Assembly: GCA_038279365.1 (NCBI GenBank)
Contig: JAYODI010000065.1
Coordinates: 1-34,953 of the forward strand
Length of the DNA stretch: 34,953 nt
DNA from: Candidatus Latescibacterota bacterium
Lineage (GTDB): Bacteria; Latescibacterota; UBA2968
Reading direction: 5' to 3'
The notes beneath the pieces are model-generated. The model was not told the DNA's origin and did no database searches. It worked only from the letters and a program-made list of their open reading frames with translations. Positions 5,818 through 31,638 of the stretch are shown piece by piece; the first letter of the stretch is position 1, and every line of letters starts with the position of its first letter. A program made the position numbers and the translations under genes.

Positions 5818-6557
5818 AATCTTTGCGGATTCTTTTGATCGTCATTTTGGCCTTTGTTGTTGTTCCTGATATTGCGGCGCAAGGTTTGCCGCGTATCAGT
5901 TTGGATGTGGCACAATCGAACAATGCAGAAGATGCAGCAGTGACTTTGGAAATTATTTTCATGCTCACTGTGTTGACGCTGGCGCCTTCCATTTTGATTA
6001 TGCTGACGTCATTTACGCGCATTGTGGTGGTGTTGTCGTTTTTGCGTATGGCCATTGGAACACAGCAAATTCCACCAACACAACTGATTGTGGGTTTGGC
6101 TTTGTTTTTGACCATGTTTGTGATGGGCCCTACTTGGGAACGTGTGTATGACAATGCCATTACACCATATTTGGAAGAGCAAATTGATCATACGGTGGCT
6201 TTGGATGAAGCCATGAAGCCGATTCGTGAATTTATGCTCAAGAACACCCGCGAAAAAGATATTGCATTGTTTGTGAAATTGTCGCGTGAAGCACGTCCTC
6301 GCAATGTGGATGAGCTGTCTAATCGGGTATTGATTCCAAGCTTTGTGATTAGTGAGTTGAAGACGGCTTTTCAGATCAGTTTTGTGTTGTTCATTCCGTT
6401 TATCATTATTGATATGGTGGTTTCCAGTACGTTGTTGTCGATGGGTATGATGATGCTCCCACCTGTTACGGTGTCTTTGCCGTTTAAGATTTTGTTGTTT
6501 GTGCTGGTTGATGGGTGGCATTTGATAGTGGAATCTATTGTGATGAGTTTTAAGTAA
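5814..6557 (+). CDS. fliP: Flagellar export gate protein FliP
   Basis: LTSFTRIVVVLSFLR, PSFVISELKTAFQI and GMMMLPP..SLPFKILLFVLVDGW motifs. Confidence 0.97.
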   Translation: MKSLRILLIVILAFVVVPDIAAQGLPRISLDVAQSNNAEDAAVTLEIIFMLTVLTLAPSILIMLTSFTRIVVVLSFLRMAIGTQQIPPTQLIVGLALFLTMFVMGPTWERVYDNAITPYLEEQIDHTVALDEAMKPIREFMLKNTREKDIALFVKLSREARPRNVDELSNRVLIPSFVISELKTAFQISFVLFIPFIIIDMVVSSTLLSMGMMMLPPVTVSLPFKILLFVLVDGWHLIVESIVMSFK

Positions 6558-6626
6558 GGTCGTGAAACGGCAAAAGTGAAACGGCAAATGGAAAGTCTAC
6601 AACGTCAGTTTTAATTGGAGTGAGTT

Positions 6627-6896
6627 ATGACCCCAGAGTATGTGGTGCATCTTGGACAGCAGGCGATTTATTTGATGTTGATGGTTTCGGCACCGATGTT
6701 GATTGCTGGGCTGGTGGTGGGTTTGGGCATTAGCATTTTGCAGGCGGTGACGCAGATTCACGAGGTGACATTGACATTTATTCCGAAGATTTTAGTGGTG
6801 TCGTTGGCTTTGGTGGTGGCGTTGCCTTGGATGATTCAGAAGTTGCTTGATTTTATGATTATGTTGATGCAGCAGATTCCGGCGATTGTAACGTAA
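6627..6896 (+). CDS. fliQ: Flagellar export gate protein FliQ
   Basis: QAVTQIHEVTLTFIPKI motif, 89 aa, GGAG RBS. Confidence 0.96.
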   Translation: MTPEYVVHLGQQAIYLMLMVSAPMLIAGLVVGLGISILQAVTQIHEVTLTFIPKILVVSLALVVALPWMIQKLLDFMIMLMQQIPAIVT

Positions 6897-6977
6897 AAGG
6901 CAAACGGCAAATGTGAAACGGCAAAAAGCCGACAGTAAATTTAAAAATCAGATAAAATTTAACTATAGAAGTGGATT

Positions 6978-7766
6978 ATGAACGCAACGTATCTCGACAT
7001 TTCTGTTGCACAATTTCAGGTGTTTTTGTTGGTGTTTTTGCGCACTTTGGGTGTTTTGGCAATGGCGCCTATTTTTGGGCATCGGGCAGTGATTAGCCAG
7101 GCCAAGGCGGGGTTTGCATTTGCCTTGGCACTTGCTTTGTTTCCTGCTATTCCGATGACATTGGCCGTAACAACCGATTTGGCACCCTATGTGTTTGCTG
7201 CGGTCAAAGAGATTACAATGGGGGTGATGTTTGGGTTTGTGGCGCGGTTGGTTTTTGTGGCGGTACAATTTGCGGGTGAGGTGATTGGTATTGATATCGG
7301 TTTTGGTGTGGTAAACGTGATTGACCCGCTTTCGGCAGAGCAAATTTCTATTATTGGTACGTTTAAGAACTTGATTGCGATGGTCACTTTTTTGATGATT
7401 GATGGGCATCATATTTTATTACAAGCATTGTCTGAGAGTTTTGCGATGGTGCCATTGGGTGGGGTTCAGTTTACGGAACTGTTGGCACAAGGCTTAATTA
7501 ATATGACGGCCCATGTGTTTGTGATGGCCATTAAGTTGGCCGCGCCGATTGTGACATCGTTGTTTTTAACTTCATTGGCATTGGGCATTATGGCACGCAC
7601 GATGCCTCAAATGAATGTGTTTATCGTTGGCTTTCCACTCAAAATAGCAGTGGGAATGGGCATGATGGCTATGGCATTGCCTTTGTTTCAAACGGTTTTG
7701 ATTAAGATGTTTTATGGTTTGGGACCCAATTTGAGTGTTTTGTTGGAACAGATGTATACACCTTAA
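6978..7766 (+). CDS. fliR: Flagellar export gate protein FliR
   Basis: Hydrophobic 262 aa protein with QFAGEVI, DGHH and RTMPQMNVFIVGFPLKI; gene order fits. Confidence 0.95.
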   Translation: MNATYLDISVAQFQVFLLVFLRTLGVLAMAPIFGHRAVISQAKAGFAFALALALFPAIPMTLAVTTDLAPYVFAAVKEITMGVMFGFVARLVFVAVQFAGEVIGIDIGFGVVNVIDPLSAEQISIIGTFKNLIAMVTFLMIDGHHILLQALSESFAMVPLGGVQFTELLAQGLINMTAHVFVMAIKLAAPIVTSLFLTSLALGIMARTMPQMNVFIVGFPLKIAVGMGMMAMALPLFQTVLIKMFYGLGPNLSVLLEQMYTP

Positions 7767-7872
7767 AAGAGGCAGGCAAAAGGCAAAAGTGAAACGGCAA
7801 AAGAGGTATTCCGTTCACTATCGTTGAGGATGATGTCACGTTTATCGATTGCCGTTTGCCATTTCAAATCCT

Positions 7873-8934
7873 ATGGCTGAAGAATCTTTTCAAGAAAAAA
7901 CAGAAGAGGCAACTCCGAAGCGGCGCGATGAAGCGCGTCGCAAGGGGCAAACAGCAAAAAGCCAAGAGTTGAACTCTGCTGTGGTGTTGATGGCAGCACT
8001 GGCGAGTTTGTATGTTTTGGGTGGGATGTTGTTTAACACGTTGTCGGGTTTTACGGCAAGCACGCTTGCACAAAGTCATACCTACGAATTTTCGGTGTTG
8101 AGTGTGCGCACCCATGTTATTGGATGGGCACAAGTGTTTTTTGGTTCTGTGGGGCCTATTCTGTTGGTCATTGGTTTGGCTGCATTTATTGTTTCGATTT
8201 CACAGGTCGGTTTTGTGATGAACGAAGAAGCATTGAATTTTAAGCCCAATCGTTTGGATCCGATGCAGGGGGCTAAGCGCATTTTTTCTATGCGTTCTTT
8301 GGTTGAACTGGTCAAGGGGATTATCAAAATTACGATTGTGGGTTTGATCAGTTATTGGGTGATTGCTCCAGAAATGCCTCGCATTGCATTGCTTACAGAC
8401 GCTGGGGTGGGTGATATTTTTACATACACTGGCGTGATGGTGTTTAAAGTGGGCATGTATACGGCGTTGGCGTTGTTGGTTATGGCCATTTTGGATTATG
8501 CTTATCAGCGTTTTGAGTTTAATAAGAGCATTCGGATGACCAAACAAGAAGTAAAAGAAGAAAGCAAACAAACAGAAGGTGACCCACAAGTGCGCATGCG
8601 GATTCGGTCTTTACAACGCGAAAATGCACGCCGACGCATGATGGATGACGTGCCAGAGGCCGATGTGGTGATTACCAACCCAACGCACTTTGCTGTGGCG
8701 TTGAAATACGATATGGACACGATGGCAACACCGATGGTGGTGGCCAAGGGTAAAAACCTAATTGCACAAAAAATTAAAGAAATTGCCCGAGAATCGGGTG
8801 TGCCAATGGTGGAAAACAAACCTTTGGCACAAGCTTTATTTAAATCGGTAGAGATTGGGCAAGGCATCCCTGAAGAGTTATATCGGGCAGTGGCTGAGGT
8901 CTTGGCGTATGTGTTCCGATTGAAGGGAAAATGA
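7873..8934 (+). CDS. flhB: Flagellar export switch protein FlhB
   Basis: EKTEEATPKR N-terminus, EGDPQ and the NPTH autocleavage motif. Start set at ATG 7873. Confidence 0.97.
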   Translation: MAEESFQEKTEEATPKRRDEARRKGQTAKSQELNSAVVLMAALASLYVLGGMLFNTLSGFTASTLAQSHTYEFSVLSVRTHVIGWAQVFFGSVGPILLVIGLAAFIVSISQVGFVMNEEALNFKPNRLDPMQGAKRIFSMRSLVELVKGIIKITIVGLISYWVIAPEMPRIALLTDAGVGDIFTYTGVMVFKVGMYTALALLVMAILDYAYQRFEFNKSIRMTKQEVKEESKQTEGDPQVRMRIRSLQRENARRRMMDDVPEADVVITNPTHFAVALKYDMDTMATPMVVAKGKNLIAQKIKEIARESGVPMVENKPLAQALFKSVEIGQGIPEELYRAVAEVLAYVFRLKGK

Positions 8935-9029
8935 TCAAGTTAAAAATAGAACGTGGAAGATGACACTTTTGAAGTTTTGCGCCCCAATTTCGACGATGTC
9001 ATGATTGTGGGGTGTCAATGGCTCTGAGC

Positions 9030-9059
9030 TTGACTAAATAGTATAAATCGCAGTATATT
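9030..9059 (+). promoter_or_regulatory. Possible internal sigma-70-type promoter upstream of flhA
   Basis: TTGACT (9030-9035), 18-nt spacer, TATATT (9054-9059) in the 155-nt flhB-flhA gap. Confidence 0.4.
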
Positions 9060-9089
9060 ATCCTACCTTGGCTCCTTTGGAGAAAACGC

Positions 9090-11153
9090 ATGAAAGAGTT
9101 TTTTGAACGTATTGCAAAATATACCGATGTGCTGTTTGCTTTGGCATTGATCGGGATGATTTCGGTGATGATCATTCCGATGCCTCCTGGTTTTTTAGAT
9201 GTTTTGTTGGCTTTTAATATTGCATTTAGTTTGCTTGTGTTGTTGATGACGATTTATATCACCAACCCATTGCAGTTGTCTGTATTTCCTGGTTTGTTGT
9301 TGGTGTTGACCCTTTTCCGACTGTCGCTTAATGTGGCCACCACCCGATTGATTTTGGGTGAGGGGTATGCGGGCGATGTGATTACCGCCTTTGGACAGTT
9401 TGTGGTAAAGGGTAATTATATTTTGGGTTTGGTGGTTTTCCTGATTATTGTGATTATCCAGTTTGTGGTGATCACAAAGGGTGCTGGACGTGTGGCTGAA
9501 GTGGCGGCTCGGTTTACCTTGGATGCGATGCCGGGTAAACAAATGGCCATTGATGCCGACTTGAATGCGGGTTTGATTACGGAAGAAGAGGCGCGAACAC
9601 GTCGTTCGAACATCTCGCGTGAAGCCGATTTTTATGGTGCGATGGATGGTGCCAGCAAGTTTGTGCGTGGTGATGCTATTGCGGGTATTTTGATTACGTT
9701 GGTAAATATTTTGGGTGGTTTGGGCATTGGGGTATTGCAGCGGGGCATGAGCGCGGCTTCTGCTGCTGAGACGTATACGATTTTGACCATTGGTGATGGT
9801 CTGGTTTCGCAAATACCGGCCTTGATTACCTCTATTGGCGCAGGTATTATTGTCACACGTTCGACATCGGACGACAACTTGGGTACCGACCTTGGACGTG
9901 AGTTGACCTCTAAACCGCGTGCCATTATGGTGGCTTCGGGTGTGTTGTTGGCGTTTGCGGCGGTGCCTGGTTTGCCGAGTTTACCCTTCTTGGTTTTGGC
10001 CATCCTCTCTGGTTTCGTGGCTTATTTTGCACAACGTGAATTGAATGCAGGTGAAACAGAAGCTGCCGCTGTTGCAGAAGCTGCCGAAGTAAAGACAGAA
10101 GAAAAACCTGAAGACTATTTGCACTTAGACCCATTGGAAATTACGTTGGGTTATGGTTTGATTCCTCTTGTGGATTCGGCACAAGGTGGGGATTTGCTCG
10201 ATCGCATTACGATGTTGCGAAAATCGACGGCGCTCGAATTGGGCGTGGTGATTCCACCCATTCGCATTCGGGATGACATTACCTTTAGCCCCAATCAATA
10301 TGCGATTAAAATTCGTGGCGTACGCGTTGCTGGGGCAGAGCTTCAACCGCGCCATTTAATGGCGATGGACCCAGGTTATGTAGAAGGTGAAGTGGAAGGC
10401 ACCAATACCATTGAACCGGCATTTGGATTGCCTGCCAAATGGATTGCTGAATCGGCACGTGAGCAAGCTGAGTTGTTGGGCTATACGGTGGTGGAACCCC
10501 CTGATGTTTTGGCTACGCATTTGACAGAAGTGCTCAAGTCACATGCCCACGAAATTTTGACACGCCAAGATACACAAAGTTTGATTGACCGTGTGAAAGA
10601 GAGCAGCCCAACGGTTGTTGAAGAGTTGGTACCCGATTTGTTGAATGTAGGTGGGGTGCAAAAGGTGCTTGAACATTTGTTGCAAGAACAAGTGCCTGTG
10701 CTGGATATGCAAACCATTTTGGAAACACTGGCTGATTATGCCAACTTGACCAAAGACCCCGAAATTTTGACCGAGTATGTACGCACGGCGCTTGCGCGAA
10801 CCATTTGCCAAAAATATTTGAATGACGAAGGCAATATTCCTGTGCTGACAGTGGACCCGCAATTGGAACAACAAATTGCCAATGCGATGCAAAGTACACC
10901 GGGTGGCATTAAAGTGGTGTTGTCGCATGATGTGACCAATCGGTTGTTGGAGCGCCTGGCAGAAAGCATTGACGGGATGGTGAACAACAATCAACAACCC
11001 GTGGTATTGACGGCTCCTAATGTGCGCCCAGCATTGCGACGCTTGACTGAAACGACGTTTCCAAGTTTGGCGGTGTTGTCTTATAATGAGATTGTTCCTG
11101 GTGTGGATGTTTATTCGGTGGGGATGGTGTCATTGGATGCGGTGCCTGCGTAA
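9090..11153 (+). CDS. flhA: Flagellar export protein FlhA
   Basis: RVAEVAARFTLDAMPGKQMAIDADL and FYGAMDGASKFVRGDAIAG (FHIPEP motifs). Confidence 0.98.
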   Translation: MKEFFERIAKYTDVLFALALIGMISVMIIPMPPGFLDVLLAFNIAFSLLVLLMTIYITNPLQLSVFPGLLLVLTLFRLSLNVATTRLILGEGYAGDVITAFGQFVVKGNYILGLVVFLIIVIIQFVVITKGAGRVAEVAARFTLDAMPGKQMAIDADLNAGLITEEEARTRRSNISREADFYGAMDGASKFVRGDAIAGILITLVNILGGLGIGVLQRGMSAASAAETYTILTIGDGLVSQIPALITSIGAGIIVTRSTSDDNLGTDLGRELTSKPRAIMVASGVLLAFAAVPGLPSLPFLVLAILSGFVAYFAQRELNAGETEAAAVAEAAEVKTEEKPEDYLHLDPLEITLGYGLIPLVDSAQGGDLLDRITMLRKSTALELGVVIPPIRIRDDITFSPNQYAIKIRGVRVAGAELQPRHLMAMDPGYVEGEVEGTNTIEPAFGLPAKWIAESAREQAELLGYTVVEPPDVLATHLTEVLKSHAHEILTRQDTQSLIDRVKESSPTVVEELVPDLLNVGGVQKVLEHLLQEQVPVLDMQTILETLADYANLTKDPEILTEYVRTALARTICQKYLNDEGNIPVLTVDPQLEQQIANAMQSTPGGIKVVLSHDVTNRLLERLAESIDGMVNNNQQPVVLTAPNVRPALRRLTETTFPSLAVLSYNEIVPGVDVYSVGMVSLDAVPA

Positions 11154-11197
11154 TGGGTGTATTCAAAAAAAAAGGCGAAGTTTGGGATTGATTTTCT

Positions 11198-12391
11198 ATG
11201 CGCATTAAAAAATACATTGCAGCCTCTATGCCAGAAGCACTCAAGCAGGTTAAAGCCGATTTGGGGCCACAGGCTGTTATTTTGAACACACGCACTTTGC
11301 GCAAAAGTGGTAAGTTGGGTCTTACGGGCAAAGGGCAGGTGGAGGTGACGGCTGCCATTGATGAAGGCGGTGGTGCGCTGTTGAAGAAAGTCCCCGCAAA
11401 AAAAGCGGTTGTGTCAACGCCTGCAGAAGCTGGTTCATCTACCCTTCCCAAACCTATCTCTCGGCCTACGTCTCAAGCTTTGTCTGCTTCTGTGCCTGAT
11501 CCCAAATGGGCAGATCGCATTACACAAAAGTTAGAAGGTTTAGAAGCTGCATTGCGAACGGCCCCCTCAAGACAGAGCGAGAAGTTGTTGCTTCCTGGTG
11601 CGCTTGATCCATTGGCGCAACAGTTGCGGTTGGCGGGTTTGTCGGATGCACTTGCACAAGATGTGCTTAAAACACTGCTTTTGGATCCTGGCCCCAACGG
11701 ACTGAAAGAATTGCCCCCTCTTCAAAAACGTGCGGGGCAGTTGATGAGCCGATGGTTTGAAAGCCCGCAGCCCACACGATTGGGCAAAAATGTGCGCAGT
11801 GTGGTGGCCTTGGTTGGCCCTGCTGGGGTGGGGAAAACGACAGCGGCGGCACGAATGGCGGCTCATTTTTCAGACGCAGGTGCTCGGGTGGTGTTGGTGG
11901 CAGCAGATACGGATCGTGTCGGTGGCTTGGAGCAAATAAGGGCCTATGCGGGTATTTTGGGTGTGCCCATCGAAGTGGTCTATACCTCAGATGAAATGGG
12001 CGATTTGATTCGGGATCGCCGAGATGTGGATTTGATGTTGATTGATACAGGCGGGGTGGGTCCATTGGATCAGGAGCGCTTGTTTCAACTGAATGAATTG
12101 TTAAAAGAAGCGGCACCGAATGAAGTGCATTTGACGCTTTCGGCAACCGCAGACTTGCATCAAATGTTGGATGTGGTGGCAGCATTTGAGCCAGTGGGTG
12201 TGAATCGGTTGTTATTGACCAAAATTGATGAGACGGCGCGGTTGGGGGCTGTGTGTGCAGTGGCTGTTGCGTCTAAGTTGCCATTGTCTTATCTGACAAA
12301 TGGGCGGGCGGTGCCCGGAGATTTTCAGCCAGCAGATCCGAATGTGTTGGTTGCGTGCCTTTTTGAGGGGGTTGCCCATGTCAGCAGATGA
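11198..12391 (+). CDS. flhF: SRP-family GTPase FlhF
   Basis: MRIKKY..MPEAL..VKADLG N-terminus, GPAGVGKTT, DTGG and TKIDE; sits between flhA and flhG. Confidence 0.92.
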   Translation: MRIKKYIAASMPEALKQVKADLGPQAVILNTRTLRKSGKLGLTGKGQVEVTAAIDEGGGALLKKVPAKKAVVSTPAEAGSSTLPKPISRPTSQALSASVPDPKWADRITQKLEGLEAALRTAPSRQSEKLLLPGALDPLAQQLRLAGLSDALAQDVLKTLLLDPGPNGLKELPPLQKRAGQLMSRWFESPQPTRLGKNVRSVVALVGPAGVGKTTAAARMAAHFSDAGARVVLVAADTDRVGGLEQIRAYAGILGVPIEVVYTSDEMGDLIRDRRDVDLMLIDTGGVGPLDQERLFQLNELLKEAAPNEVHLTLSATADLHQMLDVVAAFEPVGVNRLLLTKIDETARLGAVCAVAVASKLPLSYLTNGRAVPGDFQPADPNVLVACLFEGVAHVSR

Positions 12392-13202
12392 TGCACGTGC
12401 AACGGTGTGGTCTATTACAAGCGGTAAGGGTGGGGTGGGCAAAACCACATTAAGCGTAAATTTGGGTATTGCCTTGGCCAAGCAGGGGTTGCAGGTGTTG
12501 CTGATGGATGCCGATTTGGGTTTGGCCAATGTGGATATTTTATTGGGTGTTTCTCCCGAACGTACGGTTCAAGATTTGCTTTCTGGTGAAGCCTCGGCTT
12601 TGGATGTGGTTGTTGAAGGCCCTGAAGGGTTGTCTATTTTACCTGCTGCTTCAGGCATGGCAGAACACGATGCTTGGCAGATGGAAGATCGCCATCGTTT
12701 GGCAGAAGAATTGGGGCGGTTGGAGCGGGGATATGATCTGATTTTAATAGATACAGGTGCAGGTATTTCTTCTAAAGTAACCGATTTTGTCATGGCATCT
12801 GATCGCATGTTTGTGGTTGCAGTGCCAGAACCCACCTCTATTGCAGATGCCTACGCCATGGTGAAGGTGTGTCATCAAAATGCTCCTGCCCCGAAGATGG
12901 GTTTGATTGTGAATCGGGCACGTTCTCCAAGAGAAGCATTTGCATTACATCAGAAATTTGACCAAATTGTAGAGCGGTTTTTGGGTATTCATGTGGATCG
13001 TTCGGGATATGTGTTGGAAGATATTGCAGTAGAACAAGCCTCACGATCGCAGAACCCTGTTTTATTGTCACACCCAAACTCTGCTGCTGCAAAATGCATT
13101 GAGCAATTGGCAAAGGAGTTATCGGGTGGATCAGAGGTCCTAAAAAGACAAGGGCCGGGTTTGTTTGATAAGTTAATGAGTCGTATTATCGCAGATATTT
13201 AA
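12378..13202 (+). CDS. flhG: MinD-like ATPase FlhG/FleN
   Basis: SGKGGVGKT, DADLGLANVD, DTGAG and PEPTSIADAY. ATG 12378 lies behind GAGGGGG and overlaps the flhF end. Confidence 0.93.
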   Translation: MSADDARATVWSITSGKGGVGKTTLSVNLGIALAKQGLQVLLMDADLGLANVDILLGVSPERTVQDLLSGEASALDVVVEGPEGLSILPAASGMAEHDAWQMEDRHRLAEELGRLERGYDLILIDTGAGISSKVTDFVMASDRMFVVAVPEPTSIADAYAMVKVCHQNAPAPKMGLIVNRARSPREAFALHQKFDQIVERFLGIHVDRSGYVLEDIAVEQASRSQNPVLLSHPNSAAAKCIEQLAKELSGGSEVLKRQGPGLFDKLMSRIIADI

Positions 13203-13270
13203 AGTCACTCTACATCAATAGATCAAAAAACTCAATGCTGAGGTTTTTGATTTGCCCTAACGAGAGTTTT

Positions 13271-14038
13271 ATGGGAAAACAAAGAGCACAGTCGGCATAT
13301 CAAAAAACCCAATCGGCCAATGCACAAGATAAGCGCGAAGGCCAATTGATAGAGTATTTGCCATTGGTGAAATATATTGCTGGACGCATTGCAATTGGGT
13401 TGCCCAAGTCTGTTGAGTTGGACGATTTGATTAATGCTGGCGTCGTGGGCTTGATTGAGGCTTATAATAATTTTGATACCAGCAAAGGTGTCAAATTTGA
13501 ATCATATGCGTCTATGCGTATTCGTGGTTCTATTTTGGATGAGTTGCGTGCTGTTGATTGGGCACCGCGTTCAACCCGTGCCAAGTCGCGCGAAATGGAG
13601 CGGTCTATTTCGTCATTGGAAAACAAATTGGGCAGATCTCCCACGGAAGAAGAAATTGCTGAAGATCTCGATGTGTCTTTGGGCGATTTGTATAAGCTGC
13701 TGGATGACTTAAGCTCGACGACATTGTTGTCTTTGGATGAACTGTCGTATGGTTCTGATGAAGACAAACCTGTGCCTTTGCTTGATACTTTAAAGTCTAA
13801 GGATCGCACAGATGCATTGGATCAACTCGAGCGCGATGAAATGCGCAATTTGTTGGTGGATGCTATTGAATATTTGACGGAGCAAGAGCGGTTGGTAATT
13901 GCTTTGTATTATTATGAAGAACTGACATTAAAAGAAATTGGTCAGGTGATGGAATTGTCGGAATCGCGTGTGTCTCAAATTCATACAAAGTCTGTTTTGA
14001 GCTTGCGCGCCAAATTGCGCATGCGGTTGTTGCAATAA
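13271..14038 (+). CDS. fliA: Flagellar sigma factor sigma-28 (FliA/WhiG family)
   Basis: RIRGSILDELRAVDW and LYYYEELTLKEIG..SESRVSQIH. Start set at ATG 13271. Confidence 0.96.
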   Translation: MGKQRAQSAYQKTQSANAQDKREGQLIEYLPLVKYIAGRIAIGLPKSVELDDLINAGVVGLIEAYNNFDTSKGVKFESYASMRIRGSILDELRAVDWAPRSTRAKSREMERSISSLENKLGRSPTEEEIAEDLDVSLGDLYKLLDDLSSTTLLSLDELSYGSDEDKPVPLLDTLKSKDRTDALDQLERDEMRNLLVDAIEYLTEQERLVIALYYYEELTLKEIGQVMELSESRVSQIHTKSVLSLRAKLRMRLLQ

Positions 14039-14114
14039 ACACTATGAAACGGCAGACGGCAGACGGCAAAAAATTCTTTAAAATTCACCTGTTTTTAAAT
14101 GAGTATTTGATGAC

Positions 14115-15062
14115 GTGGCAAATTTAGCCCAAACATTTGCACAAGTACAGAGCCCAGAATTGAGCCAAAACCGATCACAGCGTTTGCGGCAGATTACAGA
14201 AAAGATTATTGGTTTGCCTACGTTGCCTACCGTGGTAACACAGTTGATTTCTGTGGTGGGTGATCCAGCATCTTCGGCGCGCCAAATTGCGCGGTTGGTT
14301 TCGACCGATCAGGCTTTGACTGCTAAAATTTTGAAAGTGGCCAACTCGTCGTTTTATGGGTTTTCGCGAGAGATCGCAACGGTGCAGTTGGCCATTGTGG
14401 TTTTGGGCATTGAGATGGTGAAGAATATCGGGTTAAGTGTGGCGGTGCTGAAGCGATTTTCCGAAGGGAAAGAACACCGATTGTTTGATCGCCAAAGATT
14501 TTGGGCCCACGCAATTGGGTGTGGTGTGGCTGCGCGCATGTTGGCACTTAAGTTTAAGGATCGTCGTATTGCCGACGAAGCTTTTGTGGCGGGTGTGTTG
14601 CACGATATTGGCAAGTTGATTTTGATTGAATATTTTAATGAAGAGTTTATCACTGTGTTGGAAAAAGCTGAGGTCGAAGGATTGGCCATTGTGGATGCCG
14701 AGGAGGAAGTTTTGGGGGTATCCCATGCCGATGTCGGGGCATGGCTGGCTGAAAAATGGAATTTGCCAGCCCATTTGGTAGAGGCCATTGCCTATCATCA
14801 TCGCCCCTTTGAGCCCGATGCCGAAAACCCTCAGGATTTGGTTATTTTGACCCATATGGGTGATGCCTTGATTCGGCATTTGCGTGTGGGCAACAGTGGT
14901 GATCAACAACTGGCCTCTTTGCATCCAAAGGTGGCAGATATGTTTAAAAAAGGGCGTAAAATTTCGGATGAGGCCTTATTTGAAGAGTTGGGTATCGGTT
15001 TGGAAAGTGAGTTGGAAACCGCACAAGTATTTAAAGATTTGGATGATGGTACTGAAAATTAA
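14115..15062 (+). CDS. HDOD-domain protein
   Basis: LPTLP..DQALTAKILKVANSSFYG, GVLHDIGKL, HADVGAWLAEKWNLP..IAYHH. Confidence 0.92.
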   Translation: MANLAQTFAQVQSPELSQNRSQRLRQITEKIIGLPTLPTVVTQLISVVGDPASSARQIARLVSTDQALTAKILKVANSSFYGFSREIATVQLAIVVLGIEMVKNIGLSVAVLKRFSEGKEHRLFDRQRFWAHAIGCGVAARMLALKFKDRRIADEAFVAGVLHDIGKLILIEYFNEEFITVLEKAEVEGLAIVDAEEEVLGVSHADVGAWLAEKWNLPAHLVEAIAYHHRPFEPDAENPQDLVILTHMGDALIRHLRVGNSGDQQLASLHPKVADMFKKGRKISDEALFEELGIGLESELETAQVFKDLDDGTEN

Positions 15063-15080
15063 TCGAATGATGATGGGTTT

Positions 15081-15956
15081 ATGAATCAAGATATTTTAAA
15101 ACGCGCGTCTGAATTGGCACACAAAATGGATGCCAAACCCGACCAAATGGCTGCATTGTTTGCTGATTTGGTCGATTTGGCACAGCAACAAGTGGCAGAA
15201 ATTGAGACGGTGCGCAGTGAACGAGATAAGGCCGATAGAAATTTGAAAGTGTCCCAGGCCCAATTGGTGCAGTCGGGTAAGATGGCGGCTGTAGGGCAGT
15301 TGGCTGCGGGAGTGGCCCATGAAGTGAATAACCCTTTGCAGATTATTTTGAGCCGGGTGCAGTTGTTGATGATGCGCAATCAGGGGCAAGATACTTTGGT
15401 GCAAGATTTGCAATTGATCGAAGCCAATGTGAAACGAATTTCGCGCATTATTCGAAGTTTGCTCGATTTTGCACGGCACAACAATGGTGAGGAAGATTGG
15501 AAAGTTGTTGCATTGATACCGCTTATTGAACAAACGGCAGAGTTGATGCGGCATTTGATGGAAAAATCGGGTATTGCGTTGACGGTGACAAATCTTGCAA
15601 GTGAGTCACCTATTTTGTATGGCAATGTGGGTGAAATCGAACAAGTGTTTTTGAACTTGCTGATCAATGCGCTTCAGGCAACACCTAAAAATGGTCGTAT
15701 TGATATATGTGCTGAATGCGTGGGTGAATATGTGGTGGTGCGGGTTTCCGATACGGGTAAGGGGATTGCGCCAGAAAATTTATCTCGCATTTTTGAACCT
15801 TTTTTTACCACCCGTGAAAACCAAGGTGGAACAGGATTGGGGTTGGCCATTATTTCGGGGATTGTGGATAAGCATCGGGGTAAAATAGAGGTGGAAAGTG
15901 TAGAGGGTGAGGGAACCACATTTATTTTGACATTTCCGGTTGATAAGAGTGGATAA
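15081..15956 (+). CDS. Cytoplasmic histidine kinase (HisKA + HATPase) with no recognisable sensor domain
   Basis: H box AHEVNNPL, N box NLLINA, G1 DTGKGI, F box FEPFFTT, G2 GTGLGL. Only a short coiled-coil precedes the H box. Confidence 0.92.
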   Translation: MNQDILKRASELAHKMDAKPDQMAALFADLVDLAQQQVAEIETVRSERDKADRNLKVSQAQLVQSGKMAAVGQLAAGVAHEVNNPLQIILSRVQLLMMRNQGQDTLVQDLQLIEANVKRISRIIRSLLDFARHNNGEEDWKVVALIPLIEQTAELMRHLMEKSGIALTVTNLASESPILYGNVGEIEQVFLNLLINALQATPKNGRIDICAECVGEYVVVRVSDTGKGIAPENLSRIFEPFFTTRENQGGTGLGLAIISGIVDKHRGKIEVESVEGEGTTFILTFPVDKSG

Positions 15957-15957
15957 T

Positions 15958-16470
15958 ATGCAAGGTATAGAAGTGCTCTATTGGGCCTTGTCGGTTCTTT
16001 TTTGTTTGGCTTTGGTTTTTGCCATTTTGTTTTGGTGCCGAAGTTGGCGAAATGAAGAACGCGAAACCAATTTGCGTCATTTGCAGTTATTGGCCCGTGA
16101 AGTGAAGCGTTTGGCTGAGGCAGTTGATGGATTGGAACATACGGCTGCTTCGTTGCAAATGGCAGATGAACAATTTTCACAACAGATTGAAAACATTCGC
16201 AATTTGGGGCGCGATTTAAAACGTCAACTGACCCCATCGGTTGTTCCTGCTCCTCAAACTGTGGCCTCAGAATCTAAGCCTGCTCCTATGCCATCAGCAC
16301 CCAAAGAGGCAGTAACTTTTCAAGAATCGTCAGAAGATCGTTATGCACAAGCACGAGATTTGTTGCTTGCTGGCCAACCACAAACAGATGTGGCACGACA
16401 ATTGGATTTGGGAACGGCTGAAGTGAGAATGATTGCACGGTTGCTCGAAAAAACAGGTGATGCATCATGA
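15958..16470 (+). CDS. Membrane-anchored coiled-coil protein with C-terminal HTH-like motif, probably flagellum-associated
   Basis: N-terminal TM helix, coiled coil, Pro-rich linker and YAQARDLL..G....VARQLDLG.AEV.MI tail, resembling small proteins often found after fliA. Confidence 0.65.
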   Translation: MQGIEVLYWALSVLFCLALVFAILFWCRSWRNEERETNLRHLQLLAREVKRLAEAVDGLEHTAASLQMADEQFSQQIENIRNLGRDLKRQLTPSVVPAPQTVASESKPAPMPSAPKEAVTFQESSEDRYAQARDLLLAGQPQTDVARQLDLGTAEVRMIARLLEKTGDAS

Positions 16471-16940
16471 TGCGCGTTGTTTATTTTTTTCTTGTGGTTG
16501 TGATGATGGGATGTAATAAAAATGAGGCGCCTACGGGTGTGTCGCGTACGGATGTCGAAGGCGTTTGGGCGGCTTCATTGGGTACGGTGAATTTGATGGG
16601 GCGCACACTGGTTGGAGAAAGCGATTGGCAGTTTAACCGCAGTACATTTGAGATTGCTTTTCTCGACCCACCTGTTGGACATGCAGAACGCATATCGGGT
16701 GATTGGAAGTTTAAAGATGGTAAAATGGTCATGACATTACGCAGTTCATTTCCCATTGTGGGAGATGTGGGCGCGAGCGATACGATGTTTGTTTCCATTT
16801 TGAATAATCAGATGTCATTGCAGACGCTTTCGGGTAGCAATATTTTGTTGGTCAAACTGCGTTCTTTTGCACAGGCTGTGTTACCTGAGCCCATTTGGGT
16901 TTTTCTGCCTGCCTTTTTACCTTCGTTTTTTGGTGCGTAG
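16467..16940 (+). CDS. Putative lipoprotein of unknown function
   Basis: Hydrophobic leader ending MMGC (non-canonical lipobox), a VEGVW motif suggesting a lipocalin-like barrel, and an ATGA overlap with the upstream gene. Confidence 0.6.
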   Translation: MMRVVYFFLVVVMMGCNKNEAPTGVSRTDVEGVWAASLGTVNLMGRTLVGESDWQFNRSTFEIAFLDPPVGHAERISGDWKFKDGKMVMTLRSSFPIVGDVGASDTMFVSILNNQMSLQTLSGSNILLVKLRSFAQAVLPEPIWVFLPAFLPSFFGA

Positions 16941-17077
16941 AGGGCATTGAAATAAAATGGTCGTACAGGGATCGTTTTTGCCTCTTTGTTTGTTGGATTT
17001 ACATGTTATTGTTTGGGTGCGCCTCTTGAAAGTTGGTTTCTTGGGCGCACTTTTGTTTTTATGATGGTGAGCTTCTC

Positions 17078-18388
17078 ATGCAAATTCAAAGCAGCACCCC
17101 CACACTGCGTTTCAATTTTTCGACAGATTCTCAGCGTCAAGCTTTGTTTGGCCGTTTGAGTGAAGGGCAAATGTTGGAAGCTCGTGTGGTGAATGAGGTG
17201 TCTACTGGGAAGTGGGCTGTGCGTTTGATGGGGCAAACGTTGGTGGCGGAGTCGCGTTTGGCATTGGAACCGGGGCAGACGGTGGCCGCACGGGTTGAGT
17301 CGTTGGGGCCGCCATTGGTGTTGGCTTTAACTGGGCATGCACGCGCTGAAGAAACGGCAATGCATCGGGCATTTCAATCTTTGGGGTTGGCAGATGACGC
17401 GACAAATCGTGCGATTTTACGGGGCTTAATTGCTAAGGGTATGCCGATTGATCGGGAACAGGTACAGGCTTTGAGACACCTGTTGACAGGGTTACAGGGC
17501 ACATTGAATTTGGATGGTGTAGATGTTTTGGAGAGGGTTATTGCACGGAGTTTGTTTTTACAACAACAAGGTATGCCTGTTACACCGGAGGCATTGGCAA
17601 CGTATTTGTCTCAGTTGCCACCGGGGGTGTTGGGTGGTTTGTTTGCAGATTTGGCGGGTGTTTTGCGTGGGTTGCGTTTGCGCCAAGGCACAGAAGTAAA
17701 TTTGGCAGAGTTGGCCGACCAGTTGGCAGAGGCCTTGCCTGATGGTGGACAGATGACCGCAGATACTTTGCGTAAGTTGGTGGGGGATTTGGGTGTGGAT
17801 TTGGAAGGGCGTTTGGCGCATTGGCTGTTGCAAGGACAAGAGGATTTACCCGAAGATGTGCACCGTTCGTTGCGAGGGGCTTTGTTGCGCTTGTTGACAC
17901 AATTGGAAGGACTGGATGGCGCAGATGGCCAAGTGCAAATGCTGTTGGGGCGTGTGCGTGAGACGTTGCAGACATTGGATACCATGCAAGCGGTAAATGT
18001 GCCCACAGAAAACCGAGAGGCACTGATGTTGCAACTGCCCCTGATGATGAATGGCCAACCGACAACAGCTGATTTGCAGGTGTTTTATCAAAAGCGTGGC
18101 AATGGTCAGATTGACCCCGACCATTTGCGATTTACATTGGCGTTGGATTTGTCGGGGTTGGGGGCTGTGCGATTTGAGTTGGTACTGGTGAAAAAACGGG
18201 CGACATTACGTGTTTATGCAGTGGATGAACAGCGGGCAAAATTTTTGGAAGGTGAATTGGGTGATTTGCAGACGCGTTTGGAAGGGTGTGGGTATACGGT
18301 TGCGGATATTGCGTGTCGGGTAATTGATCAAGTCCAAGAAAATCTTGTGGATAAACCACCAACGGTGGGTGTGGATTTTCGGGTGTGA
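17078..18388 (+). CDS. FliK-like flagellar hook-length control protein
   Basis: C-terminal LALDLSGLGAVRFEL..LEGELGDLQTRLEG.GY..VDFRV resembles the FliK C-terminal domain; it is the last gene of the flagellar cluster. Confidence 0.7.
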   Translation: MQIQSSTPTLRFNFSTDSQRQALFGRLSEGQMLEARVVNEVSTGKWAVRLMGQTLVAESRLALEPGQTVAARVESLGPPLVLALTGHARAEETAMHRAFQSLGLADDATNRAILRGLIAKGMPIDREQVQALRHLLTGLQGTLNLDGVDVLERVIARSLFLQQQGMPVTPEALATYLSQLPPGVLGGLFADLAGVLRGLRLRQGTEVNLAELADQLAEALPDGGQMTADTLRKLVGDLGVDLEGRLAHWLLQGQEDLPEDVHRSLRGALLRLLTQLEGLDGADGQVQMLLGRVRETLQTLDTMQAVNVPTENREALMLQLPLMMNGQPTTADLQVFYQKRGNGQIDPDHLRFTLALDLSGLGAVRFELVLVKKRATLRVYAVDEQRAKFLEGELGDLQTRLEGCGYTVADIACRVIDQVQENLVDKPPTVGVDFRV

Positions 18389-28115: not shown

Positions 28116-28373
28116 ATGTCTGGAATGATTCGTACTCAAATCTACCTTTCATCCGAACAACATGATGCGTTGAAACGACGCGGCGAAGGGGCAAAAAAAA
28201 CAATGGCTTCAATGATTCGAGAAGCCGTGGATCACTATTTGGCAGAAGAACAAGCACCTTCTCCTTTTCCCGTTGATGATCCTTTGTTTGATTTGATCGG
28301 GGCTGTTGACACTGGCCCGACAGATGTGTCAGAAAATCACGACATCTATCTTTATAACGATCCACATAAATAA
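28116..28373 (+). CDS. Ribbon-helix-helix (CopG-like) antitoxin
   Basis: RTQIYL..EQ...LKR......MASMIREAVD.YL N-terminus and DVSENHD.YLY C-terminus; AGGAGG RBS; upstream of a PIN gene. Confidence 0.85.
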   Translation: MSGMIRTQIYLSSEQHDALKRRGEGAKKTMASMIREAVDHYLAEEQAPSPFPVDDPLFDLIGAVDTGPTDVSENHDIYLYNDPHK

Positions 28374-28387
28374 TGGATAAAACTGTT

Positions 28388-28470
28388 TCAAGTCACAGGT
28401 CGGCAAGTCGCAAGTCAAAAAAGCAGTGTATTGATTTTCGACCTGTGACCTGTAGACCTGTGACCTGCGC
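28388..28470. repeat. Inverted array of degenerate heptamers (CA[A/G]GTCN / GACCTGT) between antitoxin and toxin
   Basis: caagtca caggtcg gcaagtc gcaagtc ... gacctgt gacctgta gacctgt gacctgc; the two arms are approximately complementary. Confidence 0.7.
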
Positions 28471-28472
28471 TT

Positions 28473-28880
28473 ATGACTTCTCTTTTTATCGACACAGGTG
28501 CATGGTATGCGTTGTTTAATCAACGCGATATGCATCACCAACGTGCGCGTGCCTTTTTTGAGGGCCTCAAAAACCAGCGTATTCGTTTGTTTACATCAGA
28601 TTATATTTTTGATGAGACGCTCACGCTTTTGCGCTATCATGCAGGGTATCAGATGGCACGCCAGTTTGGTGAACATTTTAGAAGAAGCAAGGTTATTTGT
28701 GAAGGTGTTACGCCCGAAGTAAGAGAAAGTGCGTGGCAGATTTTTTGTGATTATGAAGATCAAGCCTTTTCGTTTACAGATTGCACGTCATTTGCCTTGA
28801 TGAGAATGAAAAATATTCAAGATGTATTTGCGTTTGATGCCCATTTTCAAATTTGTGGTTTTACTGTTCATCCTTTTTAA
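28473..28880 (+). CDS. vapC: PIN-domain (VapC family) toxin
   Basis: FIDTGAW, DET, SFTDCTSF and FAFD.HF acidic PIN motifs. Confidence 0.9.
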   Translation: MTSLFIDTGAWYALFNQRDMHHQRARAFFEGLKNQRIRLFTSDYIFDETLTLLRYHAGYQMARQFGEHFRRSKVICEGVTPEVRESAWQIFCDYEDQAFSFTDCTSFALMRMKNIQDVFAFDAHFQICGFTVHPF

Positions 28881-29491: not shown

Positions 29492-29527
29492 ACGCCCCGA
29501 TTCTACAAAGAATCGGGGCGTGTTTTT
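29492..29527. terminator. Probable terminator hairpin downstream of the ECF fusion gene
   Basis: ACGCCCCGATTCT-acaa-AGAATCGGGGCGT perfect 13-bp stem between convergent regions. Confidence 0.75.
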
Positions 29528-29547: not shown

Positions 29548-30813
29548 TTAAAACATCGCCCGCAGTTTTTGTTCGATGATATGTGGGTTTTCTCCAAGCT
29601 GTGTTGCCTGAATGCTTGTGCTGATGATGTCGAGTTTGCTTTCATATTGGCGCAATAATACTTTTTTTCGTGACGTTGTGATTTCTTGTACCAACTGCGG
29701 TGCCACGCCGTCGATGATTAATTGGAGGTTTAAGGATAAAAAGCCGTCTGGATCGGTTGCATCTTTTACGACATTTTGCAGGGCGAGAATGCCTTCGGTG
29801 CGTGCCACATTTGCCAAGTTGACGAGTGTGGTTGTTAAGGCTTCGAAATCTAAATGGGATGGCGGGATGGTTTTGAGTTGTTTTTGTAAGTCATTTTTCA
29901 TTTTTAAATACGCTTTGCTGAGTGGTTTTTGTGGTGGTTTTTCTTTGGGTGGCGGCCACACAATGTCGCCTCTTGCTATGAGGGCTTGAACAATTTCGAT
30001 GACGGTGGTTTGATTTTGCGCGATGAGACTGTCTGAGATGGGCATTTGTGAGTCAATATAGTCGTCTATGATTTTTCCGACACGTGCTGATACATTGGCA
30101 TAAATACGTTTTTTAAAAGCCTCACTGGCATTGACCATGGCCAGAGCCAAATCTTTGGTGTTTACTTGCCGAAGCATACGTTGAATTTCTTGATCGGTAA
30201 GTTGTGTGATGTCTTCGAGCTCTTGAATCACTTTGACTTGAAAATCGGGGTCGTTTGATGGACGTTCGTTTTGCAAATTCTTTTTGACCATTTTGATCAT
30301 CCTTTGTTGGAGGCGTTTGCGTGCACTGTGCAAGCGACTTTTGACAGTTTGCGTGGGTATGTTTAAAAAAGCACTGATTTCTTTTTGACTGTGTTCATCT
30401 ATGTAATACAAGGTGACCACTTCGCGTTCTGCTTCTGGTAAATTTTGAATGGCATGATGGACGCGAACTTTGGTTTCTTGTTCTTCAAGTTGGCTGTGTG
30501 GATCTGGTTCGGATGAAGGATGGTCGCGATCTAAATCCACAGTGAGCCACCTTTTTTTGCGTGTGAGGCGGTTACAACGCATAAAAACAATGCGCCGAAA
30601 CCACCCTGCAAAAGCAGCAGGTTCACGCAGTTGATCCAATTCTAAATAGGCACGCACAAAGGCTTCTTGAGCCACATCTTCGGCCAAATGGAAATCGCCC
30701 ACTATGGAATAGGCATATCCCACCGCCATATTTTGAAACCGATGTACCAAGCCCGTGTATGCATCTAAGTCTCGGTTTTGTGCCCGTATAACAAGAGATT
30801 GCAACGTGTCCAC
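29548..30813 (-). CDS. ECF sigma factor fused to a FliG C-terminal-like domain and a soluble MotA-like cytoplasmic domain
   Basis: aa 1-170: sigma2/sigma4 (AEDVAQEAF, WFRRI, TVKSRLHSARKRL). aa ~199-286: LEDITQLTDQEIQRMLRQV..DLALAM..AS..NVSAR..RGDIV. aa ~322-421: LANVARTEGILAL..FL..LQLIIDG..P and QLGENPHIIEQKL. GTG start with GGAG RBS. Confidence 0.85.
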   Translation of the reverse strand: MDTLQSLVIRAQNRDLDAYTGLVHRFQNMAVGYAYSIVGDFHLAEDVAQEAFVRAYLELDQLREPAAFAGWFRRIVFMRCNRLTRKKRWLTVDLDRDHPSSEPDPHSQLEEQETKVRVHHAIQNLPEAEREVVTLYYIDEHSQKEISAFLNIPTQTVKSRLHSARKRLQQRMIKMVKKNLQNERPSNDPDFQVKVIQELEDITQLTDQEIQRMLRQVNTKDLALAMVNASEAFKKRIYANVSARVGKIIDDYIDSQMPISDSLIAQNQTTVIEIVQALIARGDIVWPPPKEKPPQKPLSKAYLKMKNDLQKQLKTIPPSHLDFEALTTTLVNLANVARTEGILALQNVVKDATDPDGFLSLNLQLIIDGVAPQLVQEITTSRKKVLLRQYESKLDIISTSIQATQLGENPHIIEQKLRAMF

Positions 30814-31036
30814 AAAAACTCCAGAACAGGTTTAAGAAGGCCTTCTGTTTTAAAGCACCACCTAAAGAATGATTGGTTGATCAAAAGAAGTATTTTTTTG
30901 AAATTTCTATGGGTAATTTCGTTTGCTTATCATTAAAAGTTACATAAATTTATGGTAGTCGTATTCCAGTGAAAACATGACTGGTTGTCAATACGCGTTG
31001 TTTTGTATCTGAAATTGACAATGCAAAGAGGTTCAG

Positions 31037-31252
31037 ATGAAAGCATATCGAATAGAAAAAAAAATGACTGCGAATGGTGTATTGTCATTACAGGGTTTGC
31101 CTTTTGAAGAAGGCGATGATATTGAAGTTATTATTTTATCTGGCAAGGAAAAGAAACATACAATTTCTCAATCTATTGTAAAAGGCAAAGTGATCGAATA
31201 TAAAGACCCGACTGAACCAGTCGGACAAGATGATTGGGAAACGATTAAGTGA
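31037..31252 (+). CDS. Putative antitoxin
   Basis: 71 aa with G.L.L..LPF..GD.IEVII and acidic DPTEPV..DDW tail; AGAGG RBS; GTGA overlap with the PIN gene. Confidence 0.7.
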   Translation: MKAYRIEKKMTANGVLSLQGLPFEEGDDIEVIILSGKEKKHTISQSIVKGKVIEYKDPTEPVGQDDWETIK

Positions 31253-31638
31253 TTTTATTGGATACACATATTTGGATTTGGTTGGCGAATGAGCAGGAAG
31301 AATTAAGTGCGTATCATGCTCAGATTATTGCAGACCACAGATCGGACGGTTTGGGTATATCTGCGATATCGTGTTGGGAGGTTGCCAAATTGGTTGAATA
31401 TGGTCGGCTAAATTTGGCTTGTGATCTTGAGACGTGGATGGAGGCAGCACTTGATTTGCCCGGTATTCAAGTGATTGAGTTGACACCTACAGTTGCAATC
31501 GAATGAACAAAATTACCAGGTGCATTTCATCGAGATCCAGCAGATCAGATTATTGTGGCAACTGCCAGAACGTATCGACTTGACTTGTTAACCGTGGATG
31601 ATAAAATTTTGAAATATGAGCATGTTCATACGTTATAA
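31249..31638 (+). pseudogene. vapC: VapC/PIN toxin interrupted by an in-frame TGA
   Basis: ILLDTHIWIW..ISCWEV..AIE-TGA(31504-31506)-TKLPGAFHRDPADQIIVATAR..LLTVD, ending at TAA 31636-31638. Confidence 0.88.

Follow-up and report, generated by a model that had tools for sequence, protein, structure and literature searches.

What would a transcription factor do with pieces of the flagellar motor? The question is raised by a stretch of 34,953 nucleotides (nt) from a Candidatus Latescibacterota bacterium (assembly GCA_038279365.1, contig JAYODI010000065.1), which we call the window. At 29548..30813 on its minus strand lies an uninterrupted open reading frame (ORF) of 421 amino acids (aa) with a GTG start, in which an extracytoplasmic function (ECF) sigma core is followed by the C-terminal domain of the rotor protein FliG (FliG_C) and a copy of the cytoplasmic domain of the stator protein MotA. 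The fused pieces are the very parts through which rotor and stator meet, the FliG torque-helix subdomain and the whole MotA cytoplasmic domain, without the channel. A first-pass annotation made from the letters alone had proposed this three-part architecture and had named the pieces as the two partners of the torque-generating interface; Pfam matches to the sigma and FliG_C parts, together with profile and phmmer matches to the MotA part, bear out both points. What it overlooked changes the picture: the FliG_C and MotA-like pair is an independent and widespread module, and the sigma clade carries many unrelated extensions. Our best reading, held tentatively and at somewhat less than an even chance, is that the protein is an interaction switch that ties sigma availability to motor proteins.

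A sigma factor with rotor and stator domains

From its N to its C terminus, the protein comprises five elements.

30274..30813, minus strand: ECF sigma core, regions 2 and 4 without region 3 (aa 1-180; Pfam, TIGR02937)
30241..30264, minus strand: junction motif R184-P185-S186 ... F191, directly 3' of region 4
29959..30222, minus strand: FliG C-terminal six-helix (torque-helix) subdomain (aa 198-285; PF01706)
29917..29955, minus strand: Pro/Lys-rich linker (aa 287-299, read from the sequence)
29551..29916, minus strand: soluble MotA cytoplasmic-domain copy (aa 300-421, corresponding to MotA loop 65-140 plus C-terminal helix 217-243)

The N-terminal part is an ECF (group 4) sigma-70 factor, with regions 2 and 4 present and regions 1.1 and 3 absent (no match to a region 3 model). 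Pfam places Sigma70_r2 at aa 22-89 (E 8.3e-12) and Sigma70_r4_2 at aa 117-168 (E 1.9e-16), the models Sigma70_r4 and Sigma70_ECF also match, and the ECF superfamily model TIGR02937 reaches 97.4 bits (cut-off 42.9). None of the NCBIfam equivalog models attains its cut-off on this core, the best being SigW at 105 bits against 209; the nearest solved relative is SigW 5wuq_A (E 1.5e-19, phmmer against the PDB). The junction motif R184-P185-S186 ... F191 is invariant in 23 of 23 aligned fusion proteins. RPS right behind region 4, with F five residues on, is common across extension types, and RP[ST] stands at this position in 89 of 121 proteins irrespective of the type of extension behind it. These matches predict that the sigma-fused protein is a functional one-component ECF sigma factor.

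The middle part has the fold of the FliG C-terminal subdomain. PF01706 matches aa 198-285 over positions 20-107 of its 108 (E 1.1e-18; 67.9 bits, where the cut-off is 23.3), a phmmer search of the PDB aligns aa 199-285 with 8ucs_H, and identity to solved and own-genome FliG_C is 35-42%. The predicted fold matches solved FliG_C at Z 16-17 and a root-mean-square deviation (rmsd) of 1.1-1.3 Å over about 90 aligned residues, and 1qc7 superposes on it at 1.0-1.1 Å. The part starts just past the MFXF hinge: ARM_C and the hinge are absent, and only the last six-helix subdomain, the one that faces MotA, is left. Pfam finds neither FliG_N (PF14842) nor FliG_M (PF14841) in the protein, which is thus no three-domain FliG. 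Compared with FliG itself, it shares the C-terminal fold (Z 16-17, rmsd 1.1 Å) and the equivalents of R281 and D288, but three of five charged residues are changed. Lacking FliG_N, FliG_M, ARM_C and the hinge, it could not be incorporated into a C-ring in the normal way.

The C-terminal part required more sensitive searches. The first-pass annotation had expected domain searches to return both FliG_C and MotA; Pfam returned the former alone. On the whole protein and on the last 124 aa by themselves, it gave no useful match to the MotA part and none to PF01618, because that model covers the membrane part of MotA. Other methods found the relationship. In the PDB, phmmer pairs aa 328-399 with MotA 82-151 of 8ucs_C and 6ysf_E (E ~4e-5), and aa 296-421 match the PomA-like MotA of the same genome at 1.2e-10. 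A three-round family profile aligns with two segments of that MotA, residues 65-140 (E 1.5e-23) and 217-243 (E 7e-11), and passes over residues 141-216, the hairpin of transmembrane (TM) helices TM3-TM4. Since both cytoplasmic segments are matched and the hairpin alone is omitted, the match covers a whole soluble domain and is no chance motif: on this alignment, aa 300-421 are the entire MotA cytoplasmic domain (TM2-TM3 loop plus C-terminal helix), soluble through loss of the membrane hairpin. Both cytoplasmic segments of MotA/PomA are thus homologous here and the equivalent of R90 is kept (R338), whereas the equivalent of E98 is Q and the four TM helices and MotA_ExbB channel domain are missing (no PF01618 match, 141-216 skipped). 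Without these, the part would be soluble and could not conduct ions.

Structural comparison of this part gave weaker results. Matches to MotA chains have Z 5.4-5.7 and rmsd 5.5-5.7 Å over 100 residues, and are still the best rows that are not FliG. Foldseek on either model returned no significant MotA match (best 6ykm_A, E 0.97); the rmsd to MotA is high because the membrane hairpin interrupts the match.

Conservation of the fusion and its module

The fusion recurs well beyond this genome. The same order of sigma core, FliG_C and MotA-like domain, which the first-pass annotation had proposed to look for in other genomes, is found in 51 of 120 listed homologue clusters from several sources, at identities from 86% down to about 36%, with one MotA-like domain in 26 of the 51 and two in 25. 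Contigs from estuary and marine metagenomes match the gene itself. One, from run X6 of another study, covers 29733-30483 and crosses both junctions with 3 differences, as the junction check proposed at first pass had called for; in runs X5 and X7, contigs extend across the FliG_C/MotA junction. From a DNase-treated metatranscriptome comes a 175-nt contig at 29736-29910, which hints that the gene is transcribed.

These data bear on whether the ORF is an assembly chimera or a decaying gene. The assembly of this genome, in 199 contigs with an estimated contamination of 7.4%, invites the suspicion. The frame, however, runs without a break between a ribosome-binding site and a terminator, the architecture recurs in 51 of 120 listed clusters, and both junctions are bridged by a contig of separate origin. 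An assembly artefact is refuted by the shared architecture and the independent contig, and we give this explanation as a whole hardly any credence.

Two genomes of the same genus hold incomplete copies. In one (G001), the gene is cut by a contig end. In the other (L098, at G002:C58 1522-1752), just the last 77 codons are present, at 78% identity and in a 91-aa open frame; by its sequence this copy is a remnant or an assembly break.

The extension is a module in its own right. A search with aa 186-421 against 1.84 billion cluster representatives returned 1319 proteins at E <=1e-3 and 207 at E <=1e-10. Sorting 150 listed representatives with our own profiles gave the following architectures.

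Module behind an unrelated, conserved N-terminal domain of about 85 aa: 39/150
Free-standing FliG_C plus MotA-like: 32/150
Free-standing FliG_C plus two MotA-like: 22/150
Reverse order, MotA-like before FliG_C: 22/150
MotA-like only, or other mixes: 18/150
Module fused to sigma: 17/150

By this distribution, the FliG_C and MotA-like pair is a widespread independent module that mostly occurs without a sigma factor. The same counts raise an explanation in which the module acts on the motor itself, as a brake, clutch or stator-recruitment factor, and the sigma domain adds feedback or localisation. That most module proteins have no sigma domain, being either free-standing or behind the other N-terminal domain, speaks for it. 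In the fused branch, though, the sigma core is complete and highly conserved, and transcription is therefore very likely the output there. We regard a motor effector with a transcription handle as very unlikely.

The N-terminal domain of about 85 aa (LPxxPSLEQLKKQAK ... SLQEAQHVxAREYGF) that precedes the module in 39 of the 150 proteins, P0138, P0146 and P0150 among them, and at loci L113-L121 and L131-L139, has no Pfam match; its single Atlas match is weak (0.80) and points just to a FliG_C cluster. The domain was not found in the window's genome. At one locus (L142, G113:C64 3687-6700, minus strand), a gene for a 364-aa protein of N-domain, FliG_C and MotA-like domain lies directly upstream, on the same strand, of a gene for a 566-aa sigma factor of the same clade; judged by this gene order, the pair is possibly a split version of the fusion.

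Structure models and interface residues

Modelling predicts that the two extension domains form one unit. AlphaFold2 on the two-domain module with 31 sequences gave a mean predicted local distance difference test (pLDDT) of 91.7 and a predicted template modelling score (pTM) of 0.72, and predicts the domains to be packed in one fixed arrangement. The linker between them scores above 80 in that run; its residues 288-295 reach at least 80 in the module-only model and fall below 50 in the full-length model. The MotA-like part has pLDDT of about 88-97 in the models. The first-pass annotation had looked to structure prediction for intramolecular packing of FliG and MotA, and that much is predicted; the sigma core, on the other hand, makes no confident contact in the full-length model (pTM 0.33), where residues 178-199 between sigma and extension have pLDDT below 50.

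Charged residues of the torque interface provide a second measure of the module. Zhou, Lloyd and Blair are said to have reported in 1998 that these FliG and MotA residues act in torque generation, and we take the classical pairing to be MotA R90 with FliG D289 and MotA E98 with FliG R281. E. coli numbering was confirmed on the K-12 genes. Their equivalents in the module family are as follows.

FliG R281: R in 155/195 module proteins; here R244 (kept)
FliG D288: E/D in 129/197 module proteins; here D251 (kept)
FliG D289: E/D in 135/197 module proteins; here Y252
FliG K264: K in 69/192 module proteins; here V227
FliG R297: R in 18/197 module proteins; here S260
MotA R90: R in 217/282 module proteins; here R338 (kept)
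MotA E98: E/D in 173/282 module proteins; here Q346

The equivalents of FliG R281, D288 and D289 and of MotA R90 and E98 are thus mostly kept across the family.

Link to flagella across the phylum

The module tends to go with flagella in the Latescibacterota. We surveyed 168 species genomes of the phylum, taking an FlhA match as the flagellar marker; 63 of the 168 have one. The two-domain module was counted in at least 18 genomes among the matches listed, with 152 further matches beyond these. FlhA is present in 15 of these 18 and in 48 of the 150 others, figures that are indicative only; the co-occurrence with flagellar genes that the first-pass annotation had proposed to test is seen in them. 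The sigma-fused form was verified in three genomes (G000, which is the window's own, G007 and G080), and FlhA is present in all three. Among genomes of the phylum, the tie between module and flagella thus appears strong but not strict.

The window itself holds a flagellar export cluster at 5347-18388, running from fliO to fliK and comprising fliOPQR, flhB, flhA, flhF, a MinD-type ATPase gene, fliA and fliK. It was placed about 11 kb from the sigma gene at first pass, and the measured distance is 11.2 kb. Because unrelated metabolic genes lie between, this distance is weak evidence for a motor link.

The window's genome has four full-length FliG genes (TIGR00207, 293-380 bits), on contigs C194, C31, C118 and C26 (loci L006-L009), a further fragment at the end of C191 (L010) and one FlhA gene. 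The C194 and C31 genes are 92% identical; one of the FliG genes adjoins a gene for an RpoE-like ECF sigma factor and another a gene for an ankyrin protein. Given the 7.4% contamination, a second strain is a possible origin of some of the copies. Multiple FliG genes are also seen in complete genomes of relatives (up to 12 matches in G080).

A sigma clade with many extensions

Motor parts are only some of the extensions found in the clade of this sigma core. The core is 50-59% identical to many sigma factors with other extensions, which among the homologues include ankyrin repeats, FliE, FliG_N/M, the PheRS catalytic core, type II secretion system (T2SS) protein F, histidine-kinase domains and GNAT. 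Of the 120 listed clusters, 13 have FliE (PF02154) and 3 have FliG_N/M, so that sister sigma factors bear other pieces of the flagellar basal body. Paralogues of the clade in the window's genome have ankyrin and HEAT extensions.

A scan of named species genomes from several phyla, driven by sigma-core patterns, yielded 49 ORFs among the matches listed, with these extensions.

Ankyrin repeats: about 31/49
No Pfam match: about 10/49
Nucleotidyltransferase: 3/49
PheRS core: 2/49
Rho RNA-binding domain: 2/49
Bifunctional nuclease domain: 1/49

FliG_C was the extension in none of these 49, so that no named genome with the fusion emerged from the matches listed. Sigma factors of the clade with fragments of housekeeping proteins stand at loci L016, L031, L035, L043, L023, L022, L029 and L045 and in proteins P0060, P0092 and others; the fragments at those loci are the PheRS catalytic core, Rho RNA-binding, bifunctional nuclease, nucleotidyltransferase, FliE or T2SS protein F. 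As a set of partners for one sigma core, these housekeeping fragments are unusual.

On a tree of 117 sigma cores, a quick FastTree tree with untested topology, the FliG/MotA label changes at least 8 times, against at least 31 for shuffled labels. Known ECF groups have one extension type per sigma group, and a survey reads this as a sign that contacts of the extension with the core co-evolve (PMC7826278). The present clade, with its many unrelated extensions, departs from that picture, in line with the sigma-module contact missing from the full-length model.

The locus and its promoter

Three signals, lying outside the coding sequence, accompany the gene.

30851..30880, minus strand: weak candidate ECF-type promoter (TCAACC, 15 nt, GGTGCTTTA), with mismatches to TGAACCTTT ... 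GGCTCTTTA
30819..30822, minus strand: GGAG ribosome-binding site, 5 nt 5' of the GTG, read from the sequence
29492-29521, minus strand: intrinsic-terminator-like hairpin just past the stop, with a 13-bp stem, 8 G-C pairs and then a T-rich tail

With a ribosome-binding site before its GTG and a hairpin terminator after its stop, the gene looks like a single-gene unit. The flanking ORFs comprise PIN toxin-antitoxin pairs, one ORF without a Pfam match and one aldo-keto reductase, and a Pfam scan found no anti-sigma domain among them, in keeping with the first-pass statement that no anti-sigma gene is adjacent.

Two pairs of a small ORF and a PIN ORF, VapBC-like, flank the sigma gene at 28116-28880 and 31037-31506; the second PIN ORF, with 85 aa, is short and matches just positions 1-78 of the 120 in the profile. 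G+C content around the sigma gene is 0.40-0.44, below most of the window. GC skew is strongly positive (0.13-0.37) over window positions 1-27000, where nearly all genes are on the plus strand, and drops to 0.04-0.12 among the minus-strand genes at 28-33 kb, a pattern that fits a strong G excess on the coding strand.

The odd partners of the clade and the toxin-antitoxin neighbours invite an explanation from conflict: the sigma factors might carry copies of proteins that invaders or toxins attack, much as plant immune receptors carry integrated decoy domains, and an attack on the copy would turn on transcription of defence or repair genes. One conserved core, at 50-59% identity, is indeed joined to very different housekeeping fragments (FliG, MotA, FliE, PheRS core, Rho RNA-binding, the platform protein F of T2SS and type IV pili, bifunctional nuclease, nucleotidyltransferase, histidine-kinase domains, ankyrin and HEAT repeats), and the gene lies between two PIN-type pairs in a stretch of lower G+C. 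ECF-like domains with variable C-terminal repeats have been noted in conflict systems (PMC8195603).

Searches of defence models gave this idea little encouragement, and we consider it distinctly improbable. None of 12 clade members has a sigma-type PADLOC match; they have just weak CARF and repeat-type (ankyrin, HEAT, JetC) matches, and the protein itself (P0001) has a weak CARF match alone (E 4.4e-5), over region 4. In NCBIfam, the two sigma-ankyrin members searched had no match at E <=1e-25, and the lone MzaA match falls on a separate ankyrin protein, far short of its cut-off (136 bits, with 800 required). In the loci examined, no conserved defence genes adjoin the gene, and the tie to flagellated genomes is more simply explained by a motor role. 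The faces of FliG and MotA inside the cell are not known to be phage targets. Membership in Mza (MzaA) or another PADLOC defence system was rejected for the protein, as the weak CARF match was the only one in PADLOC and neither NCBIfam nor PADLOC gave support.

A promoter motif could be recognised in one branch of the clade. Of 58 upstream regions, 15 contain TGAACCTTT, a spacer and GGCTCTTTA, where shuffles gave 6 at most; the motif stands about 60 nt upstream and almost solely before sigma-ankyrin genes of Chloroflexota-labelled metagenome-assembled genomes; its copies read TGAACCTT(T), 13-16 nt, GGCTCTTTA at L041, L042, L048, L050, L052, L053, L055, L056 and L058-L060, and a sigma-PheRS gene (L031) is preceded by a looser one. 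The motif is likely the autoregulatory promoter of that Chloroflexota branch. The region upstream of our gene holds at most a loose look-alike. The strict motif has 15 sites genome-wide, about our own chance estimate. A metagenome scan for orthologous upstream DNA gave 3 short contigs that reach at most 95 nt upstream. At one locus (L108, bases 1-75), about ten tandem 7-nt units (CGTGACC/CGTGACT/CGCGACT) lie directly upstream of a 56%-identical orthologue.

How the module may act

We favour a switch operated by protein interaction. Both motor surfaces are conserved as a pair, they are predicted to be packed, their charges are mostly kept in the family and the module is enriched in flagellated genomes; together these make the switch the best reading. 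The FliG_C and MotA-like domains would pack on each other in cis and give a closed state. Real motor proteins, either C-ring FliG or stator MotA, would compete for one face of the module, and this competition would tether or release the sigma factor. The availability of sigma for RNA polymerase would then follow the state or the number of motors or stators. In this scheme we infer four things: that the cis packing resembles the interface, that real FliG or MotA binds, in which direction control runs, and that there is a regulon.

Several observations weigh against such a switch. The same sigma clade bears many extensions that are not flagellar, and its logic may therefore be general rather than specific to the motor. 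The gene lies outside any flagellar operon, and no regulon could be derived from the genome scan with the promoter motif. The full-length model shows no confident contact between sigma core and module (pTM 0.33) through which the module would control sigma. The protein keeps just 2 of 5 FliG charges and 1 of 2 MotA charges, leaving both classical pairs half broken in cis (R338-Y252, Q346-R244), and the presumed pairs do not covary significantly among 176 module proteins (Fisher p 0.68 and 0.09, kinship uncorrected). Three genomes have the module and no FlhA match (G161, 92% complete; G113, 83%; G072, 75%). A fourth (G003), complete in a single contig, has a 138-aa MotA-like-only ORF, three FliG-like ORFs of 321-343 aa and no FlhA match; either FliG relatives in the phylum may serve some purpose other than flagella, or flagella may have been lost recently there. 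The surveyed genomes are also kin, and the counts overstate their independence.

Some of the same observations can be turned into a different account, in which the module is an exapted regulatory extension: a compact helical unit that regulates the sigma factor in the same chain in response to a signal unrelated to the motor, its flagellar ancestry being history only. The SnoaL and TPR extensions of ECF41 and ECF42 are the precedent, and C-terminal extensions are the second commonest mode of ECF regulation and go with missing anti-sigma genes, according to the survey (PMC7826278). The prediction of the two domains as one compact unit, the interface charges lost in this protein and the few module genomes without an FlhA match, complete G003 included, all suit it. 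Regulation within the chain, however, sits poorly with the lack of a confident sigma-extension contact (pTM 0.33; linker 178-199 at pLDDT below 50), with at least 8 label changes on the 117-core tree and with a clade of many unrelated extensions, where known ECF groups have one type each (PMC7826278). It also leaves aside that the charges are kept in most family members and that the module is enriched in flagellated genomes. We rate exaptation as unlikely, though a genuine contender.

The switch reading can also be pushed further, to a proposal that we think rather unlikely. The module would be a single-chain copy of the rotor-stator interface that senses motor occupancy, its two faces holding each other shut until they are drawn apart by free FliG sites on a C-ring or by stators that are not engaged. 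Whatever stands at the N terminus (an ECF sigma in this protein, different domains in others) would then be held at the motor or set free from it. This would make a new flagellar checkpoint, in which stator engagement or motor number reaches transcription without a secreted anti-sigma. On the same logic, the sigma factors of the clade would count unpartnered subunits of machines, each carrying a copy of one subunit (the FliE, FliG, PheRS, Rho and platform-protein fragments).

Relation to known systems and significance

We rate the fusion as belonging among known ECF sigma factors with a C-terminal regulatory extension, where its rotor-stator extension is new. Like ECF41 and ECF56 (SnoaL), ECF42 (TPR) and ECF238 (Cys-rich), as treated in the survey (PMC7826278), it has the same core of regions 2 and 4, a long fused domain and no adjacent anti-sigma. 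Its extension of 240 aa is well above the 50 aa that mark extension-regulated ECF factors, and the adjacent ORFs have no Pfam anti-sigma domain. It differs from these in that the extension consists of flagellar rotor and stator domains, that its clade has many extension types and that no contact between sigma and extension is predicted.

Motor complexes offer another comparison. In 8UCS, a MotAB stator in complex with FliG_C, both partners have sequence relatives in this one chain. Here, unlike there, the two are covalently linked and MotA is a monomeric soluble domain.

A regulatory parallel is the FlgM-FliA checkpoint, in which the anti-sigma factor that holds sigma-28 leaves the cell through the flagellar export apparatus. 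The likeness is one of function only, drawn from general knowledge: the availability of a sigma factor is tied to the state of the flagellar machine. In the fusion, the sigma is of another class and there is no secreted anti-sigma, and the coupling would run through rotor-stator mimicry. The window carries its own FliA gene, at 13235-14038.

The architecture appears to be new. The first-pass annotation knew of no characterised ECF factor of this kind, and a full-text literature search turned up neither an ECF sigma with FliG or MotA attached nor a module of FliG_C with soluble MotA, which itself appears undescribed. Two ECF surveys (PMC7826278, PMC7671368) do not name FliG, MotA or ankyrin in their main text, nor does one supplementary file of PMC7826278, a paper whose other supplementary tables could bear on novelty.

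If the module does read or touch the motor, gene expression would have a new input from the flagellar machine, beside FlgM-FliA, and soluble MotA cytoplasmic domains would have their first known family. The torque-generating interface is hard to study in membrane complexes; a small soluble single-chain unit, predicted with high confidence, could bring it within reach of crystallography, NMR and binding assays. A general wiring of sigma factors to cellular machines could come to light in the wider sigma clade.

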